DNA from: an uncultured Candidatus Saccharibacteria bacterium
Lineage (GTDB): Bacteria > Patescibacteriota > Minisyncoccia > Phycocordibacterales > UBA9973
Direction: 5' to 3'
Assembly (NCBI GenBank): GCA_964473175.1
Contig: CAYYNN010000001.1
Location: 100,603 to 164,602 of the forward strand
DNA: 64,000 nt
The notes beneath the pieces were generated by a model. The model searched no databases. It saw only the letters and a list, made by a program, of their open reading frames with translations, and was not told the DNA's origin. A program made the position numbers and the translations under genes. Shown piece after piece: positions 6,810 through 37,591 of this stretch; within the stretch, counting starts at the first letter, position 1, and every line of letters begins with the position of its first letter.

Positions 6810-8546
6810 TTATGAAAGCGTTGCCTTGATACGTCTCACGCCCGCACTTGATGCTTCTTCTTTTTGTATTTTGAAATGACCAAGCTCTCCAGTATGAGTG
6901 ACATGCGGTCCACCGCAAAATTCTTGGGAGAATACTTTGTCAGCATTGTCGTGAATCATATACACAGACACAATGTCTGGATACTTGGTGCCAAATTCCA
7001 TCTCAGCACCGAGTGCTTCGGCGTCCGCTCTTGGCATTTCGCGGCGAGTGACTTGTAAGTCTTCTGCGATCTTTTCATTAACCAAGTCTTCTACTTTTTG
7101 CTTTTCTTCATCAGTGAGTTTGCGGTCAAAGTTGAAGTCAATACGCAGACGCTCTTCGGTGATGTTGCTTCCCTTTTGGTGAATGTCAGCAGAGACGACT
7201 TCTTGGAGCGCCTTGAGGAGCAAGTGATGAGCAGTATGCAGTTTGGTCGTTGTATCTGATGTGTTCGCAAGGCCGCCTTTGAACTTCTGTTCACTACCAG
7301 AGCGAGAAAGGTCTTGGTGTGCTTTCATTTCAGAATCAAATTTTGCACGGTCAATAGTCATGCCTTTTTCTTGAGCCAATTCTTGTGTGAGTTCTATCGG
7401 GAATCCGTAGGTAGTTGCGAGAACAAATGGATCAGCACCTTTTGCAAATTCCTTGAGACCGGATTCAAGAGTTTTTGAAAACTTGTCTATTTCCTTTATA
7501 AAAATAATTGGAATTTCTGTATGTTGTATTTCTGGATACTGTGTCCAATAGTGTTTCTGATACAAAACGGGAAGCGATTCAAATGTAGCAGCTCGCAAAC
7601 CAATCTTTTTGGACTGCATTACCGCACGACGAATCAAACGGCGTAAAATATATCCTTGATCTTTACTGCCTGGAAATACACCATCAGCAATAAGGAACAC
7701 AGCTGTTCGCACATGATCTGCAATAATACGCGCACTTCGTTCATTTGGAAGTGTCGAACCTTGTGCAATATCGCTCATAATAGACGCAAACATGTCTGAT
7801 TCATAGACAGTGGACTTCCCCTGCACTATCATAGCGATGCGCTCAAGACCTGAGCCGGTGTCTACATTCTTTTGTGACAGCTTACCAATGACTTTGTCAT
7901 CGCGCTTTTCATACTCCATGAACACATCGTTCCAAATCTCAACAACGTGCCCTGCATCGTCAGCTGCAACGTATTGGTCATGTGTCATGTCACCGAGCGT
8001 ACCGGTAACGTCGTAGAACATCTCGGTATCTGGCCCACACGGACCATTGTCTCCCGGACTCCACCAGTTGTTTGCTTTTGGGAGAAAGTATATTCGATTC
8101 TCTGGGATATATTGCTTCCATATCTCGACGGCTTCCATATCTCGTGGCGCATCATCGTCTCCTTCAAACACGGTGACGTAGAGACGGCTCGGATCAAGCC
8201 CAAGTCCTTCATCTTTGCTTGTGAGGAATTCAAAAGACCATTTGATTGCGTCTTCTTTGAAATAGTCTCCGAGCGACCAGTTCCCCAGCATTTCAAAAAA
8301 TGTGAGGTTTTTGTGGTTGCCCACTTCTTCGATATCTCCCGTACGCACACACTTCTGACAGCTCGCGAGACGTACTCCTTGCGGATGCTTTTCACCCATC
8401 AGATACGGTACGAGTGGTTGCATACCTGCGGTATTGAAAAGTACTGATGGGTCGTTCTGAGGCACGAGTGATGCGGACGGCAAAATAGCGTGTCCGCGTT
8501 TTGCGAAGAAATCGAGGAATCGTTGTCTGATTTGAGCTGAGGTCAT
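6810..8546 (-). CDS. alaS: alanine--tRNA ligase (short form lacking the C-terminal C-Ala domain)
   Basis: Class II AlaRS N-terminus (…FLDFFAKRGHAILPSASLVP…FNTAGMQP…) plus the editing-domain motifs HTAHHLL and CGGPHV. At 578 aa it is well short of the ~870 aa usual in bacteria. Confidence 0.85.
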   Translation of the reverse strand: MTSAQIRQRFLDFFAKRGHAILPSASLVPQNDPSVLFNTAGMQPLVPYLMGEKHPQGVRLASCQKCVRTGDIEEVGNHKNLTFFEMLGNWSLGDYFKEDAIKWSFEFLTSKDEGLGLDPSRLYVTVFEGDDDAPRDMEAVEIWKQYIPENRIYFLPKANNWWSPGDNGPCGPDTEMFYDVTGTLGDMTHDQYVAADDAGHVVEIWNDVFMEYEKRDDKVIGKLSQKNVDTGSGLERIAMIVQGKSTVYESDMFASIMSDIAQGSTLPNERSARIIADHVRTAVFLIADGVFPGSKDQGYILRRLIRRAVMQSKKIGLRAATFESLPVLYQKHYWTQYPEIQHTEIPIIFIKEIDKFSKTLESGLKEFAKGADPFVLATTYGFPIELTQELAQEKGMTIDRAKFDSEMKAHQDLSRSGSEQKFKGGLANTSDTTTKLHTAHHLLLKALQEVVSADIHQKGSNITEERLRIDFNFDRKLTDEEKQKVEDLVNEKIAEDLQVTRREMPRADAEALGAEMEFGTKYPDIVSVYMIHDNADKVFSQEFCGGPHVTHTGELGHFKIQKEEASSAGVRRIKATLS

Positions 8547-10841: not shown

Positions 10842-11900
10842 TTAGTCCACACTATCAATTATTCCTCCCCCAATAACGATATCGTTATCATATACCACAA
10901 CGGATTGTCCTAAGGCGATAACACCTGTAAAGTCTAAAACGATTTCATTTTTATTTTTGATATGCGCGACAATATCTTCTCCGTGATATCGGATATGCGC
11001 GACATACGTTTTAGAAATATCATATTCGTTGATACCATTTGATTGCCGCAAAGTGAGTGTTGTTGTGCCGTTTGCAACGGAATCGTTCATAGCTTCTTTT
11101 GCTACAACAAGAATGTTGTGCTCTATATCTTTTTTAACAACATAATACGGTGTCTCATTTGTACCTTTTTCAGTTATATGAAATCCATGCCGCTCTCCTA
11201 ATGTGTAAAACCATACACCTTCATGGGTCCCTATTACCGATCCCTCTATGTTCACTACATCACCTTTTTTCTGTTCTATATAATGACTAAGAAATTCGCG
11301 CATATCGACATCGCCGAGGAAACAGATACCTTGACTATCTTTCTTTGTCGCAGTAAACAGACGTGCTCTCTCAGCGATACTTCGCACTTCTGATTTTAGT
11401 AAATGACCTATAGGAAATAGCACATGTGCAAGTTCTGCCTGCTGGAGCATCCAGAGAAAATACGATTGATCTTTTGCTATATCAATCCCTTTTTGTAATA
11501 CAGTGCCATCGGTGCGAGCATAATGTCCGGTTGCAATAGCGTCTGCCCCATGCGTGCGTGCATAGTCCCACATCACCCCAAACTTGATAACACGGTTGCA
11601 CAAGACATCAGGGTTGGGTGTACGTCCTGCGCGGTATTCAGCGATCATGTATTCTGCAACGCCTTTTTTGTAATCGTCTTCGGCATCCAAGAAGTGGAAC
11701 GGGATATCAAGTGCCGCACAGACGCGCATAGCATCACGTTTCTCATCTAGCCATGTGCACGGAAGCCATTCTGGTGACCATGTTTTCACAAATACTCCAT
11801 GCACATCATGACCTTGTTGTTTGAGCAGGTATGCGACAACAGACGAGTCTACCCCACCAGATACGCCAACGAATATTTTTTTAGTCGTAGAAGTTTTCAC
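10842..11900 (-). CDS. mnmA: tRNA-specific 2-thiouridylase
   Basis: 352 aa; the PP-loop VGVSGGVDSSVVAYLL and conserved Cys residues match MnmA/TrmU. Confidence 0.9.
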   Translation of the reverse strand: MKTSTTKKIFVGVSGGVDSSVVAYLLKQQGHDVHGVFVKTWSPEWLPCTWLDEKRDAMRVCAALDIPFHFLDAEDDYKKGVAEYMIAEYRAGRTPNPDVLCNRVIKFGVMWDYARTHGADAIATGHYARTDGTVLQKGIDIAKDQSYFLWMLQQAELAHVLFPIGHLLKSEVRSIAERARLFTATKKDSQGICFLGDVDMREFLSHYIEQKKGDVVNIEGSVIGTHEGVWFYTLGERHGFHITEKGTNETPYYVVKKDIEHNILVVAKEAMNDSVANGTTTLTLRQSNGINEYDISKTYVAHIRYHGEDIVAHIKNKNEIVLDFTGVIALGQSVVVYDNDIVIGGGIIDSVD

Positions 11901-26298: not shown

Positions 26299-26525
26299 TA
26301 GTTGACAGCTATATAAATAGGTGCTACTATAGAAACAGAATTTAATGGGTTAAGTAAAAAAAGGAGCTAGTAGTTGATTGATAGTACATATACGATTGAT
26401 ATTATTTTTTCAATTACTACCCCTTTTTCTTAAAAATGTTTTTTGTACCGATTTTCATATGGTTGATGTTGCAGGACAAGCTACAAACCACAAGACCTTC
26501 ATTTTTTGAAGGTTTTTTTATTTGG

Positions 26526-26568
26526 TGCACGGTAGAGGGATCGCCTCTCCCTTCGGTCGAAATGCACT
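26526..26568 (-). pseudogene. degenerate duplicate of the tRNA-Val 3' half (T-arm, acceptor 3' strand and encoded CCA)
   Basis: The minus strand reads …GACCGAAGGGAGAGGCGATCCCTCTACCGTGCACCA. It shares 19 nt exactly (gtgcacggtagagggatcg) with the 3' end of the tRNA-Val gene and shows weaker similarity beyond that. The T-loop is 2 nt short and no 5' half is present. Confidence 0.5.
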
Positions 26569-26647
26569 ATTTTTATAGTCGCTCTCGCTCCTTAAAAATA
26601 GGCACCTACGGTTCTATCCCTGACCTGCCTTTTCACTTCGTTCAAAG

Positions 26648-26721
26648 TGCACGGTAGAGGGATCGAACCTCTCACCTCAGCAATGTCAATGCTGCGCTCT
26701 AACCATATGAGCTAACCGCGC
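26648..26721 (-). tRNA. tRNA-Val (anticodon GAC), with an apparent G3:U70 pair
   Basis: Manual fold of 74 nt: acceptor GCGCGGT/ACCGTGC, D-arm GCTC-ATATGGTTA-GAGC, anticodon stem CAGCA/TGCTG with loop TTGACAT, variable loop AGGTG, T-arm AGAGG-TTCGATC-CCTCT, discriminator A. CCA is not encoded. Confidence 0.8.
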
Positions 26722-26834
26722 GGGTTGTGTTGCAAAATATAACATACTTGCCCTTCATTCGCGAGAATGTTTGCTTTTTAATATAAATGTGTTATTATAA
26801 TATAAACCTCATTTTAAAACTTAAAAAACAATCT

Positions 26835-27356
26835 ATGCGCAATCAATGCAGATCCTCTGCCCTAAGTCTTTGTTCTCACAAAGAAGCAGAGATGTCATTT
26901 TTTCCCATTATTCATTCCTCGGACAAGAGATATGTTATGCCGGAAACAGCGAGAAAAGAAACTTTTGTGGGAATAGCGATGCTATTGCCTATAGTTCCCC
27001 ATCGCATGATCTTAAATGCAGTAAACGGTAGGACAGAATTTACTGACAAAATCCCCCTTGGATTTACAACATTTTCACCTTGTGAAAACCGTTCAATGGA
27101 AAACATCGACATGTACTGGGAACAACTCCTGGATACTAAAAAGAAATTTGGTCACATAACTTTATGGAATATCGTTCCACCAGATGTGTACCGGATCATT
27201 TTTGATAGGCATATCAAAGGAAAAGGTCGTATCTATTACCATGATCCGGCAGTTCAAACTGAACAGCATTTGTTTGCGGTGACTGTAACTACTAGGATAA
27301 AAACCTACCGTGTTGAAGACCCCAAGACAATTGTTATATCAGGTAGAACGAATTAA
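26835..27356 (+). CDS. hypothetical protein
   Basis: About 173 aa from the ATG at 26835 (alternative ATG at 26892, MSFFPII…). No recognisable motif. Sits between tRNA-Val and tRNA-Glu in an AT-rich stretch. Confidence 0.35.
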   Translation: MRNQCRSSALSLCSHKEAEMSFFPIIHSSDKRYVMPETARKETFVGIAMLLPIVPHRMILNAVNGRTEFTDKIPLGFTTFSPCENRSMENIDMYWEQLLDTKKKFGHITLWNIVPPDVYRIIFDRHIKGKGRIYYHDPAVQTEQHLFAVTVTTRIKTYRVEDPKTIVISGRTN

Positions 27357-27456
27357 TCCTACAGACAACACTGAGCCAGCTTTATAAGCTGGCTCATTTG
27401 ATTTTTTAGCAAAAATTTGTACAATAGTACGCACATGGCTATCCGCCACTGTAATT

Positions 27457-27531
27457 GGCCCCATCGTCTAACGGTTAGGACAGAAGCTTTTCAAGCTTTA
27501 AATCGGAGTTCGATTCTCCGTGGGGTCACCA
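27457..27531 (+). tRNA. tRNA-Glu (anticodon TTC), CCA encoded
   Basis: Manual fold of 75 nt: acceptor GGCCCCA/TGGGGTC, D-arm GTCT-AACGGTTA-GGAC, anticodon stem GAAGC/GCTTT with loop TTTTCAA, T-arm CGGAG-TTCGATT-CTCCG, discriminator A, then CCA. A perfect 16-nt palindrome follows at 27533-27548. Confidence 0.85.
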
Positions 27532-27835
27532 ACTCGTGCTAGCACGAGAAGCTTCAATTTAAAGGGTTTTTTACGTTGCCATTTTTAGCACCCTTTTGAG
27601 AATCGAACCTGGCTTAAGCCGCTTTTTTCATTAGATACCGTGCGATAGAATTTCGAGAAAGTTCTTCTAATGAATTAGGATATCTTTCCGGCACATCGGC
27701 ATCAATAGTGCCTTCATCGGTATCTACGTTGTATTTTCTATACTTCAAGCTGCTTCTATGACGTCTGTTTAAATAGTATTTGTTTAAAATCCTTTATACT
27801 TTTGAATATTAAGTTCCACCTGTATACCCATTGGT

Positions 27836-33469: not shown

Positions 33470-35611
33470 TTGTCCATGGAAACCTCCTCTATTCCCTCTT
33501 TGCCTGAGAAACTTCTCAAACCATACAATCCAGTCGACGAAGAATCTCGTTTATATAAAAAATGGGAAGACTCTGGATACTTCACTCCCGAGAACATGAT
33601 CAAGGATGGTCTGACCGCTGCTGATGCAAAACCATTCACCATCATACTCCCTCCACCCAACGTCACCGGACAACTGCACATGGGTCACGCAATGATGCTC
33701 ACCATCCAAGACATACTCATCCGCTACAAACGCATGCAAGGGTTCCGTACACTCTGGCTTCCTGGCACCGACCACGCAGCTATTGCAACACAGTCCAAAG
33801 TAGAAAAAGAAATACAGAAAGCTGAGGGCAAATCTCGTCACGACCTTGGACGTGAAGAAATGCTTAAGCGCATCGAAAGCTTTGCGCAAGACTCGCACGA
33901 TACGATCGTCAACCAAATGAAAGTTATGGGTGCAAGTTGCGACTGGACACGCGAAGCATTCACACTCGATGAAAAGCGAACGCTTGCAGTTCGTACCGTG
34001 TTCAAGTCTATGTATGACGATGGACTGATCTATCGCGGACACCGCATCATCAACTGGGATCCCAAAGGTCAGACAACGATCAGTGATGACGAGATCGTAC
34101 ACGAAGCGCGCAAAGCAACGATGTATACGTTCAAGTATTCCAAAGACTTCCCTATTGCGATCTCTACCACTCGTCCTGAGACCAAAGTTGGTGACGTAGC
34201 AGTTGCAGTTCATCCTGATGATGCGCGATACACACAGTACGTAGGAAAAGAATACGATGTAGTATTTTGCGGTGTACCAATCCATATCAAAGTGATCGCT
34301 GACAAAGAAGTAGACCCTGCGTTTGGAACTGGTGCACTTGGGGTTACGCCAGCACACTCTATGACTGACTGGGAAATTGCGGACAGACATGATTTGCCTC
34401 GCCCACAAGTGATCAATGAATACGCCAAGATGACTGTTGGCGCCGAGCGTCTCATGGGCAAGAAAGTATCAGAGGCACGCGAAACCATCGTGTCCTGGCT
34501 TCGCGACGAAGTACTCTTAGAAAAAGAAGAAGTGATCGACCAAAACGTTGCGACTGCAGAACGCACAGGCGGCATCATCGAGCCATTGCCCAAGCTTCAG
34601 TGGTTTATCGATGTGAACAAACCAATCCCCGCACGTGGCAACAAATCTCTCAAAGACCTCACGCGAGAACCAGTTGCAGACGGGCGCATCGGCATCATTC
34701 CCGAATACTTCGACAAGACATATTTCCACTGGATCGACAACCTCCGCGACTGGTGTATTTCTCGGCAGATTTGGTACGGACATCGCATCCCGGTCTGGTA
34801 CAAAGGAGATGAAATTTATACTGGCGTAGAAGCACCTGTTGGAAATGATTGGGAACAAGATGCTGACACGCTTGATACATGGTTCTCGTCTGCTATGTGG
34901 ACATTCTCAACATTGGGATGGCCTGAGCAAACTGCTGATTTAAAAACCTATCACCCAACAACAGTTCTAGAGACAGGTCCTGATATTTTATTCTTTTGGG
35001 TGGCACGTATGGTACTTATGACAGGCTACGTTTTAGACACTATTCCTTTTGAGAAAATATATTTGCACGGGCTCGTCCGGGACGCAAAGGGTCAGAAAAT
35101 GTCAAAGTCTCTCGGTAACGCCATGGACCCACTCGACATCGCCGCAAAATACGGCGCAGACGCTGGACGTATGGCATTGATATTCGGCACGGCTCCCGGC
35201 ACCGACTCCAAGATTTCTGAAGACAAGATCAAGGGCCAGAAACACTTTGCAAATAAAATATGGAATATCACACGGTTTGTACTTGGACAACAAAACACTG
35301 GTGAAATAAAACAAGAACTCAAACATGAGTTTGATGCTCTTGCACAATCCATCAGTACTGACCTTGATGCATTTCGACTCCACACCGCTGCAGAGACGCT
35401 CTACAACTACATTTGGACACGCTTTGCTGACGAGATACTTGAAGCTAGTAAAAAAGAAACTGGTTATGGCGCAACGCTTCACTATATTCTCGAAGGTTCA
35501 TTGAAACTCCTTCACCCATTCATGCCATTTGTTACCGAATCCATCTGGGAGCTTCTTCCGCAAAAAGATAGTACACTATTGATGACACAGCAATGGCCAA
35601 CCTCAGCATAA
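33470..35611 (+). CDS. valS: valine--tRNA ligase (short form)
   Basis: 713 aa; class I HIGH (PPPNVTGQLHMGHA) and KMSKS (KMSKSLGN) motifs; the editing domain is present but the long C-terminal coiled coil is absent. Confidence 0.9.
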   Translation: MSMETSSIPSLPEKLLKPYNPVDEESRLYKKWEDSGYFTPENMIKDGLTAADAKPFTIILPPPNVTGQLHMGHAMMLTIQDILIRYKRMQGFRTLWLPGTDHAAIATQSKVEKEIQKAEGKSRHDLGREEMLKRIESFAQDSHDTIVNQMKVMGASCDWTREAFTLDEKRTLAVRTVFKSMYDDGLIYRGHRIINWDPKGQTTISDDEIVHEARKATMYTFKYSKDFPIAISTTRPETKVGDVAVAVHPDDARYTQYVGKEYDVVFCGVPIHIKVIADKEVDPAFGTGALGVTPAHSMTDWEIADRHDLPRPQVINEYAKMTVGAERLMGKKVSEARETIVSWLRDEVLLEKEEVIDQNVATAERTGGIIEPLPKLQWFIDVNKPIPARGNKSLKDLTREPVADGRIGIIPEYFDKTYFHWIDNLRDWCISRQIWYGHRIPVWYKGDEIYTGVEAPVGNDWEQDADTLDTWFSSAMWTFSTLGWPEQTADLKTYHPTTVLETGPDILFFWVARMVLMTGYVLDTIPFEKIYLHGLVRDAKGQKMSKSLGNAMDPLDIAAKYGADAGRMALIFGTAPGTDSKISEDKIKGQKHFANKIWNITRFVLGQQNTGEIKQELKHEFDALAQSISTDLDAFRLHTAAETLYNYIWTRFADEILEASKKETGYGATLHYILEGSLKLLHPFMPFVTESIWELLPQKDSTLLMTQQWPTSA

Positions 35612-37354: not shown

Positions 37355-37591
37355 TTAGACCATGCCCAGGAGTTTCCTGATATGAGACTCCTGAAATCCT
37401 ACTGACACGTCGTCTCCTACTCGAATAACTGGTACACCGAGTTGTCCAGTGAGTTCCATCATTTCACTTCGTTTTGCAGCATCTGCCGCCACATCATACT
37501 CAGTATATGCAATATTATGTGCCTTGAAAAAGTCCTTTGCAAGATGGCAATAGTGACAAACAGGGGTGCTGTATATGGTGATTGGTTTCAT
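37355..37591 (-). CDS. glutaredoxin/NrdH-like redoxin
   Basis: 78 aa; the CHYC active site after a beta-strand (ITIYSTPVCHYCHLAKDFF) and the …GVPVIRVGDDVSVGF… motif of the thioredoxin fold. Confidence 0.75.
   Translation of the reverse strand: MKPITIYSTPVCHYCHLAKDFFKAHNIAYTEYDVAADAAKRSEMMELTGQLGVPVIRVGDDVSVGFQESHIRKLLGMV

Follow-up and report, generated by a model that had tools for sequence, protein, structure and literature searches.

A G3:U70 tRNA-Val and a conserved trailer ending in a copy of its 3′ end in a Patescibacteria genome

We analysed a stretch of 64,000 nucleotides (the window; G+C content of about 42%) from contig CAYYNN010000001.1 of assembly GCA_964473175.1, an uncultured Candidatus Saccharibacteria bacterium, and within it a minus-strand gene for tRNA-Val(GAC) together with the DNA that follows it. 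Our results make it fairly probable that the G3:U70 acceptor pair of this gene is tolerated in the presence of a short alanyl-tRNA synthetase (AlaRS), and that the gene is co-transcribed with a trailer under selection, related to structured units found behind tRNA genes of other genomes. The gene has priA, ftsA, ftsZ and trxB upstream and glycosyltransferases downstream. Comparison loci (L-numbers) were gathered either via trxB or via the 3′ end of tRNA-Val. The trxB relatives, taken from GTDB genomes, are all metagenome-assembled genomes of Patescibacteria labelled Saccharibacteria, Paceibacterota or Nomurabacteria, and the fourfold-degenerate sites of trxB are saturated between the genomes compared. 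The trxB look-ups L261, L262 and L264-L266 were set aside, their synteny being different or their contigs too short. A metagenome scan with GATCCCTNTACCGYGCAC proved too generic, returning 120 loci that were mostly hemB-like coding sequence or tRNA-Val of other phyla, and only L040, L042, L075, L109, L120, L122, L127 and L132 were useful. The parts of the tRNA-Val unit are the following.

26736-26744, minus strand: probable extended −10 promoter of the unit (TGtTATATT), read from the sequence, with its end 15 nt ahead of tRNA position 1
26648-26721, minus strand: tRNA-Val(GAC), positions 1-73, from ARAGORN, Rfam RF00005 and the covariance-model alignment of the identical L002 gene
26632-26646, minus strand: linker UUUGAACGAAGUGAA directly after C74, with an ACGAAGU mini-hairpin closed over a GAA loop, recognised by its conservation
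26525-26622, minus strand: window-type trailer element of 98 nt, from CAGGGAUAGAAC to ACCGUGCAC, defined on alignment A4 by identity to L267 and L259
26611-26622, minus strand: 5′ box CAGGGAUAGAAC, antisense to the T-loop and to the 3′ strand of the T-stem of the tRNA, counterpart of the box GAGGGAnCGAAC of the full units described below
26558-26610, minus strand: central long hairpin, GUGC-CUAUUUUUA ... UAAAAAUAG-u-GCAU with apical GGAGCGAG, from RNAalifold (minimum-free-energy fold, z = −2.5)
26523-26548, minus strand: distal copy of the tRNA 3′ end, AGAGG-CGAUC-CCUCU-ACCGUGC-A-CCA, read from the sequence, in which 26525-26543 is an exact 19-nt copy of tRNA positions 56-74
26495-26513, minus strand: terminator-like hairpin closing the tRNA-Val and its trailer, bidirectional and also ending a convergent plus-strand transcript (consensus scan)

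A sequence-only reading of this stretch had reported a nearby same-strand copy of the 3′ half of the tRNA, and its description proved accurate: 19 nt are exact, the T-loop is 2 nt short and the copy ends in CCA, which the intact gene, as also reported, does not encode (its discriminator A73 is followed by C-U-U). The copy lies 104 nt downstream of the tRNA. Indeed, the 18-mer GATCCCTCTACCGTGCAC is found exactly twice in the 64 kb, at 26525-26542 and 26647-26664, both on the minus strand, with none expected from 100 shuffles; including the preceding C, the identity of the two copies is the 19 nt that the reading had singled out as worth looking for elsewhere, and those two copies are the only ones in the window. 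A second AACGAAGTGA motif, at 37473, lies inside coding sequence and was dismissed as chance.

The fragment belongs to a longer conserved element. The same element of about 98 nt is present in L259/L260 and in L267, where it is identical to the window at 90/97 and 89/98 positions, respectively (91-93%), compared with a trxB fourfold identity to the window of 0.36-0.37 in these two loci and of 0.34-0.42 across eight relatives. Outside the 18-mer the trailer is still 90% identical (counted on alignment A4), and the spacers and terminators that flank it cannot be aligned between relatives. The three long versions (window, L259 and L267) have no open frame in common, and in the one frame that is open nearly every change is non-synonymous; a protein-coding trailer was rejected on these grounds. 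On the other hand, the central hairpin is kept: among the three sequences given to RNAalifold there is one compensatory change from A:U to G:C (in L267) and three G:U-compatible changes at C:G and G:C pairs, and all of these changes are consistent with an RNA made from the tRNA strand. Because identity is this high against fourfold sites at 0.36-0.37, with no open reading frame (ORF) and with the hairpin kept, the fragment very probably forms the end of a functional non-coding element that is strongly held by purifying selection, and is not a scar. The 5′ box CAGGGAUAGAAC may pair with the distal copy (AGGGA:UCCCU). A shorter trailer of 49-55 nt, starting with UUUGAACGAAGU and ending with GAGAGGCGAUCCCUnUACCGYGCAC, is found in L003, L007 and L268/L269; L007 and L268 are identical over 48/49 positions, with a trxB fourfold identity of 0.50. 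Since L267 (long form) and L007 (short form) share their 3′ flank, the short form arose by internal deletion. The linker UUUGAACGAAGUGAA is likewise kept after the tRNA in L003, L007, L267 and L268 and recurs after the tRNA-like 3′ end in L075; its place is taken by GCGAAGC in L042 and L109, and it is absent in L259.

Full units of 130-160 nt lie behind tRNA-Val in L002, L004, L042, L075, L109 and L120. Their paired ends, GCACGGUA and UACCGUGC, form an acceptor-like helix, which is followed by a hairpin with the conserved loop AAACURCUUU, by the box GUGAGGGAnCGAAC, whose GAGGG pairs with a 3′ CCCUC, by a hairpin with a GGAG/CGAG internal loop, by GGUGnnnAGAC with a variable hairpin and, last, by a 3′ end resembling that of a tRNA. 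The modelled topology is that of a tRNA in which the T-loop has become a large insertion and the D and anticodon arms a single hairpin. In five units, 20/33 pairs show compensatory changes. With ten units, in an alignment that was itself fitted to a covariance model, 97.1% of the cells are paired, compared with 65% after shuffling and about 37% after sliding, and 26/33 pairs change on both sides. A kissing interaction in which the loop of the first hairpin (CUGC/CUAC) would meet that of the second (GCAG) was rejected, as no covariation was seen by eye.

Profile and covariance searches recovered further units behind tRNA-Glu in L075, L019, L020, L002 and L120, as well as between tRNA-Ser and tRNA-Val in L019. 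The GC-rich lineage L122 also yielded a match. The box of a unit tracks the tRNA upstream of it, being GAGGGAUCGAAC behind tRNA-Val and GGGGAAUCGUAC behind tRNA-Glu, each complementary to the T-arm of that tRNA. The units fall into two subtypes, both of which are represented at Val loci as well as at Glu loci. The full L002 unit (searched within 7900-8500) has no match in Rfam 15 even at E ≤ 10. Searches with short words from the units were unproductive: a 17-mer gave a single match, in coding DNA of L258 with no tRNA there, and a 14-mer gave 117 loci among which the profile search showed no real unit. In L019, the region 11020-11190 (plus strand) behind tRNA-Glu carries AGTAACTTGTGACCTCCAGTGACCCTAA twice, about 80 nt apart, and this sequence contains GTGACCCTA, the complement of the acceptor 3′ strand of tRNA-Glu. 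In the window, TGAGAATCGAAC lies at 27597-27608 (plus strand), 66 nt after tRNA-Glu(UUC) (27457-27531), and matches the reverse complement of the T-arm of that tRNA (GGAGAATCGAAC) at 11/12 positions; the box and its flank are also present in L004. It may be the remnant of a Glu-linked trailer unit like those of L075, L002, L019, L020 and L120.

Compared with the full units, the window trailer has neither the 5′ acceptor strand nor the first hairpin, and the order of its modules differs in part. It keeps, as read by eye, the box CAGGGAUAGAAC, the apical GGAGCGAG, the motif CCGAAGGGAGAGGCGA (comparable to CCGAA-hairpin-UGAGAGGCGA in L004) and the terminal 18-mer. These modules suggest, with moderate confidence, that the window trailer is a reduced relative of the full units.

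The sequence-only reading had taken the copy for the remnant of an old att exchange at the tRNA 3′ end. This interpretation fails because relatives carry the fragment inside a conserved non-tRNA element (91-93% over 98 nt against 36-37% at fourfold sites), the very outcome that the reading had said would refute it. In its most explicit form, the distal copy would be the displaced original tRNA 3′ end (an attR/attB half), the element having since been deleted and the interval being in decay, and the attP of that element would read GAUCCCUCUACCGUGCAC and then UUUGAACGAAGUGAA. The layout does resemble an integration site: the direct repeat begins in the T-loop, which is the classic position of tRNA att sites, it runs to the gene end, and the proximal copy completes a functional tRNA. 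Moreover, the distal copy is followed by the same CCA-AAUAAAAA-terminator context as the intact genes of L263 and L005, the distal copy of L003 keeps C70 and CCA while the tRNA of that locus has U70, and a true att-like repeat does exist in an unrelated lineage, L127. However, the repeats are only 104 nt apart and, contrary to the expectation for decaying DNA, the interval is under purifying selection: the DNA between them is 90% conserved outside the 18-mer while neutral sites are saturated, and even the minimal 49-nt form is identical at 48/49 positions between L007 and L268. Related units show RNA-type covariation, and tRNA-Glu and tRNA-Ser genes are followed by the same architecture, the arms of which fit the respective tRNA. 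Nor is the terminal CCA kept, as it is present only in the window and L003 and is replaced by CAU, CAA, CCU or CCC in other loci. Finally, the 18-mer had 0 matches in 2.9 million viral contigs, leaving no viral attP match, and no integrase was found among the annotated immediate neighbours (trxB, ftsZ, ftsA, glycosyltransferases and one unassigned ORF) and the ORFs of at least 450 aa, a check that did not extend to a systematic integrase screen of the window. Taken together, we regard a scar as highly improbable.

By contrast with the window, the repeat in the GC-rich L127 (4169-4270, plus strand) looks like a genuine att-type scar: about 70 nt after the tRNA-Val, it repeats CCCTGTACCGCG(C/T)ACCATTTTC past the CCA into the flank. 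As for the origin of the distal copy, the tRNA genes of L263 and L005, which have no trailer, end as tRNA-CCA-AAUAAAAA-terminator (AAUA(A/C)AAAA), the same context as that of the distal copy in the window. Because of this shared context, the copy probably descends from the original end of the tRNA gene. The duplication is ancient, however.

The copy and its tRNA have nevertheless stayed alike. The copy has no mismatch to its own tRNA in the window, L002, L075, L259, L267 and L268 and a single one in L003 and L007, and it changes in concert with the T-stem of that tRNA (CCUCU versus CCUGU). In L259 and L267 it still matches the tRNA although its own upstream AGAGG no longer pairs (AGAGG...CCUGU). 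Their likeness must be maintained either by selection or by gene conversion over very short tracts. The concerted change is the main support for a different function, in which the distal 18-mer competes with the proximal one for the 5′ acceptor and T-stem strands of the tRNA, the rest being looped out as a giant T-loop insertion, and thereby gates or delays maturation or provides an alternative CCA-bearing end. It would agree with the perfect complementarity of the copy to the tRNA 5′ strands even in L259/L267 (tRNA ACAGG/CCUGU), with the lack of an own 5′ acceptor-like partner in the reduced forms and with the topology of the full units, which is exactly that of a giant T-loop insertion. Yet in L042 the 3′ end of the unit has drifted away from the tRNA (5 mismatches) and still pairs with its own 5′ arm, and the local tRNA fold is always favoured both kinetically and entropically. 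We know of no bacterial enzyme that excises such a T-loop insertion. Moreover, the other tRNAs of the window lack CCA, and a CCA-adding enzyme must therefore exist anyway. We consider this alternative 3′ half unlikely.

The units could also act as DNA rather than RNA, the sense and antisense copies of the tRNA 3′ end being recombination sites or single-stranded DNA hairpin sites (MITE-like, or relics of the IS200/IS110 type) that drive rearrangement. Full units indeed end in inverted repeats of 10-18 bp, their subtypes have moved between Val and Glu loci, the tRNA-Val/ORF/tRNA-Glu module has opposite orientations in L002 and in the window, and the Val- and Glu-linked units stand in inverted orientation around it. 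However, the units are single-copy and confined to tRNA trailers instead of being dispersed, and no transposase or recombinase was found in the neighbourhoods inspected. Their internal helices covary across species, which mobile copies would not need; G:U pairs are found only when the tRNA strand is read, and terminators frame the units as transcription units. A purely DNA-level element thus appears very unlikely. The rearrangement itself comprises the block unit/tRNA-Val/ORF/tRNA-Glu/unit, which at L002 7159-8312 is inverted relative to trxB as compared with window 26525-27608. In L002 the Val- and Glu-linked units are inverted repeats at the ends of this block, and they may mediate its inversion.

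We now turn to the tRNA itself. The sequence-only reading had called a minus-strand tRNA-Val(GAC) with an apparent G3:U70 pair, and three methods agree with it. ARAGORN reports tRNA-Val with anticodon GAC at 26647-26721 (minus strand), Rfam RF00005 scores the gene at 60.5 bits for a threshold of 29, and in the Rfam alignment of the L002 gene, which has the same sequence, positions 1-7 form a stem with 66-72. The acceptor stem, GCGCGGU/ACCGUGC, is hence composed of G1:C72, C2:G71, G3:U70, C4:G69, G5:C68, G6:C67 and U7:A66, with G3 at 26719, U70 at 26651, A73 at 26648 and C74 at 26647. G3:U70 is the textbook example of one base pair determining the amino acid with which a tRNA is charged. It is truly unusual in a tRNA-Val because a G.U at 3:70 impairs E. 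coli tRNA-Val and its valyl-tRNA synthetase (ValRS) (PMC9976931), and because, in several systems, putting G3:U70 into other tRNAs is enough to have them alanylated (PMC9976931, PMC7954030). The bacterial alanine set comprises A73, G2-C71, G3.U70, G4-C69 and G20 (PMC9976931). The tRNA-Val of the window has two of these five elements (G3.U70 and A73) and misses the other three, having C2-G71, C4-G69 and U20 (D-loop AUAUGGUUA). It has all of the valine identity elements A35, C36 and A73 (set as given in PMC9976931), although the minor valine element G20 is U, as read by eye in the D-loop.

The pair is not peculiar to the window. Conservation among relatives, which the sequence-only reading had left to be seen, is clear: U70 is fixed in 12 distinct genomes (window, L002, L003, L004, L007, L075, L120, L132, L259/L260, L263, L267 and L268/L269), and C70 is found in L005, L011, L040, L042 and L109 as well as in the more distant L017, L019 and L020. 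Because these 12 genomes carry U70 while their trxB fourfold sites are saturated, we regard U70 as a trait that became fixed in a sub-clade long ago rather than as an error. Wobbles are common in acceptor stems of the clade, with G2:U71 in the tRNA-Glu of the window (27457-27531, plus strand) and G6:U67 in the C70-type tRNA-Val of L005/L011, and a general drift from C to U on 3′ strands may have had G3:U70 among its results.

The AlaRS of this genome, which had been described as lacking the C-Ala domain, does lack it: the 578-aa ORF at 6810-8546 (minus strand) contains only the domains tRNA-synt_2c and tRNA_SAD, and it matches the short-AlaRS model NF002436 (595 positions) end to end. C-Ala is missing in the viral mini-AlaRS as well, but the AlaRS of the window keeps a remnant of the editing domain (tRNA_SAD), which the viral enzyme as described (PMC10036535) does not have. 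The E. coli AlaRS reads the pair with two residues, Asp400 touching the 2-amino group of G3 and Asn303 touching O4 of U70; in a set of over 2,500 AlaRS sequences, conservation of these two residues exceeds 95% (PMC6055181). In an alignment to the E. coli enzyme (PDB 3hxu), PSNENRGY corresponds to PGSKDQGY in the AlaRS of the window and LYDTYGFP to LATTYGFP, which places Ser at the Asn303 position and Thr at the Asp400 position. Thr at the latter is found in 114/114 close relatives with a readable motif, a change that is known here from alignments. On the other hand, Ser at the Asn303 position is found in 13/95 relatives, the nearest relatives of the window included, and Asn303 is kept in most. 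We found no correlation of Ser303 with U70 in tRNA-Val: L002 and L007, whose AlaRS were assigned to their loci by inference, combine Asn303 with U70, and Ser303 therefore does not explain U70. The family-wide loss of Asp400 may explain the tolerance of U70, and this AlaRS family would then read tRNA-Ala differently, G3:U70 and A73 alone being insufficient.

To see which amino acid the codons stand for, we compared 30 GUC/GUU codons of trxB and alaS with the homologous positions of other proteins, which hold V at 0.72, I at 0.13, L at 0.04 and A at 0.03 (V/I/L 0.89). The GUA/GUG codons of the same two genes show the same V/I/L distribution, and the comparison is partly circular for homologues from inside the U70 clade. 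By this measure GUY codons are still valine, with no sign of reassignment. Two explanations of G3:U70 had been offered in the sequence-only reading, alanine mischarging and a lineage-specific solution to AlaRS/ValRS discrimination. The second is favoured by a pair fixed in the clade, by GUY codons that mean valine, by the presence of two of five alanine elements and by an AlaRS without Asn303 and Asp400; of the first, a low level of alanine mischarging of tRNA-Val may still hold. The stronger claim, that the tRNA has a dual identity or accepts alanine and that GUC/GUU is partly or wholly read as alanine, finds some encouragement in the alanylation of other tRNAs given G3:U70 (PMC9976931, PMC7954030), in an A73 that is common to tRNA-Ala, in the impairment of E. 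coli ValRS by a 3:70 G:U and in the ValRS of the window. It conflicts with codons that lie at V/I/L positions (0.89, with Ala at 0.03) and are indistinguishable from GUR codons, with the absence of G2:C71, G4:C69 and G20, with an AlaRS lacking an Asp400 equivalent and with the stability of G3:U70 over deep divergence in 12 lineages. We thus find it distinctly unlikely. The ValRS in question (33470-35611, plus strand) is short, its 713 aa aligning to positions 2-697 of a valS model with 860 positions. It lacks the C-terminal ~160 residues, which form the coiled-coil region in other bacteria.

Our tRNA-Val resembles engineered G3:U70 tRNAs and the vertebrate G4:U69 tRNA-Thr/Cys mischarged by AlaRS, in that a tRNA with a non-Ala anticodon carries a G:U at the site read by AlaRS, here together with A73. 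In contrast to those cases, G3:U70 is here natural and fixed in a clade, in a tRNA-Val that apparently decodes GUY; the codons carry no alanine signal, and the AlaRS is altered at the very residues that read the G:U in E. coli. In the scenario that we favour, C70 would have changed to U70 in the ancestor of a Paceibacteria/Nomurabacteria-like sub-clade, and the wobble would have been inherited and tolerated in a tRNA that is still a valine tRNA. The likely reason for this tolerance would be that the truncated AlaRS (no C-Ala, Thr at Asp400 and, here, Ser at Asn303) needs more than G3:U70 and A73.

Several observations weigh against this combined picture of tolerated pair and selected trailer. 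The window-type structure is derived from three sequences with one compensatory pair. The trailer is absent altogether in L263, L132 and L005, and is dispensable, since these loci do without it. In L002, L004, L075 and L120 a strong terminator-like hairpin separates tRNA and unit, which fits simple co-transcription poorly. Of two covariance models built from full units, R1 gives 7.8 bits (E 4.7) on the window trailer (26524-26653) and R2 gives no match at E ≤ 10; the link to the family was made through modules read by eye, namely a GAGGGAnGAAC-like box, GGAG/CGAG, CCGAA..GAGAGGCGA and the terminal 18-mer. The association of the family with tRNA-Val is caused in part by the sampling route. Lastly, the AlaRS argument extrapolates from two residues of the E. 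coli enzyme.

Co-orientation of tRNA and trailer, their shared terminator, the conserved extended −10, the conservation of the trailer, the concerted change of the copy and the covariation of the full units are all seen directly. The motif TGnTATAnT stands at equal distance from the tRNA in L002, L003, L004, L005, L007, L259 and L263, although a consensus promoter scan did not flag the extended −10 upstream of tRNA-Val (no −35). From this promoter, the tRNA and its trailer of about 125 nt would be transcribed as one RNA up to the terminator, RNase P and RNase Z would release the tRNA, and the tRNA-like 3′ end of the trailer would engage the same maturation machinery and let the trailer persist as a small RNA, as RtT does. 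Co-transcription, release and persistence are what we infer from the layout, and this particular processing route is rather doubtful.

The repeats of the E. coli tyrT operon each close with a copy of the final ~19 nt of the tRNA. RtT RNA is reported to be a non-coding RNA from the 3′ trailer of that operon that is freed during processing (Bosl & Kersten 1991, cited in PMC4986893). The likeness to our trailer lies in the location behind the tRNA of a transcription unit and in the repeated tRNA 3′ end, and is an analogy of layout, not kinship. Indeed, there is no similarity in sequence or structure, with no RtT match at E ≤ 10 in 26300-26800 or in L002 7900-8500; the phylum is different, a single unit (two in L075) takes the place of the 178-bp tandem array of tyrT, and the full units of these candidate phyla radiation (CPR) genomes have a tRNA-like multi-helix fold with strong covariation and a copy that evolves with the tRNA. 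As in tmRNA, YrlA/Y RNA and viral tRNA-like structures, the full units present an acceptor-like helix on a T-stem-like helix, with a 3′ tail from A73-C74. This acceptor/T-stem shape is of the kind recognised by RNase P, RNase Z and the CCA-adding enzyme. Unlike in tmRNA and Y RNA, the insertion of the full units is at the T-loop and not between the D and T regions, and there is no reading frame; the reduced form of the window differs further from tRNA-like RNAs in lacking any 5′ acceptor strand. No tmRNA (ARAGORN, Rfam) or Y RNA (Rfam) was found, and Rfam searches, at the gathering threshold over the window and at E ≤ 10 over 26300-26800 and L002 7900-8500, returned only tRNAs plus noise. A group I intron or split tRNA was rejected, as the tRNA-Val is uninterrupted and has no Rfam intron match; the tRNA group I introns of Patescibacteria lie at position 35/36 (PMC13011429).

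Three neighbouring features deserve mention. A probable small RNA gene converges on the tRNA-Val unit and is described by these two elements.

26302-26330, plus strand: sigma-70-like promoter of the small RNA candidate, TTGACA-17-TACTAT
26492-26516, plus strand: terminator of the small RNA candidate

The putative gene (26302-26516, plus strand) has a conserved 5′ box AGAAUUUAAUGGGUUAAG and a long hairpin, and has no Rfam match. Its promoter, AAUGGGUUA box and hairpin recur in L003, L004, L005, L007, L259, L267 and L268, as well as behind tRNA-Glu in L040. Between the divergent tRNA-Val and tRNA-Glu genes lies a conserved ORF at 26892-27356 (plus strand; listed as 26787-27356), which matches nothing in Pfam or NCBIfam and has just 14 homologues in a set of 1.84 billion representative proteins. 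AlphaFold predicts for it, with confidence, an alpha/beta fold (pLDDT 84.6) without a significant PDB match (best E 0.056). As a partner protein of the trailer it was rejected: we saw no link, and the ORF is also present in genomes without units. Finally, a plus-strand tRNA-Ser(CGA) directly follows trxB in L003, L004, L005, L006, L010 and L263 and is absent there in the window (26299-26646 compared), L007, L259, L267 and L268.

More broadly, and only tentatively, we propose that Patescibacteria and at least one GC-rich lineage outside this clade (L122) encode an uncatalogued class of structured RNAs, derived from tRNA and located in trailers behind tRNA-Val, tRNA-Glu and tRNA-Ser genes, which would co-evolve with the tRNA and keep the acceptor/T-stem frame around a multi-helix T-loop insertion. 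The window would hold a reduced version under selection, and the G3:U70 tRNA-Val of the same clade, together with an AlaRS without the Asp400 read-out, would point to a rewired alanine rule; on balance we hold this wider proposal slightly less probable than its contrary. If true, the co-evolution of the units implies a function tied to the identity or the maturation of a specific upstream tRNA. For annotators, duplicated tRNA 3′ ends come with a warning, as they are not always integration scars. A G3:U70 tRNA-Val that is stable in a clade, beside a truncated and altered AlaRS, is a natural experiment on how the alanine identity rule can be rewired. In minimal genomes, retained non-coding sequence is unlikely to be idle and, if expressed, the units would be a new class of tRNA-mimicking small RNAs in such genomes.

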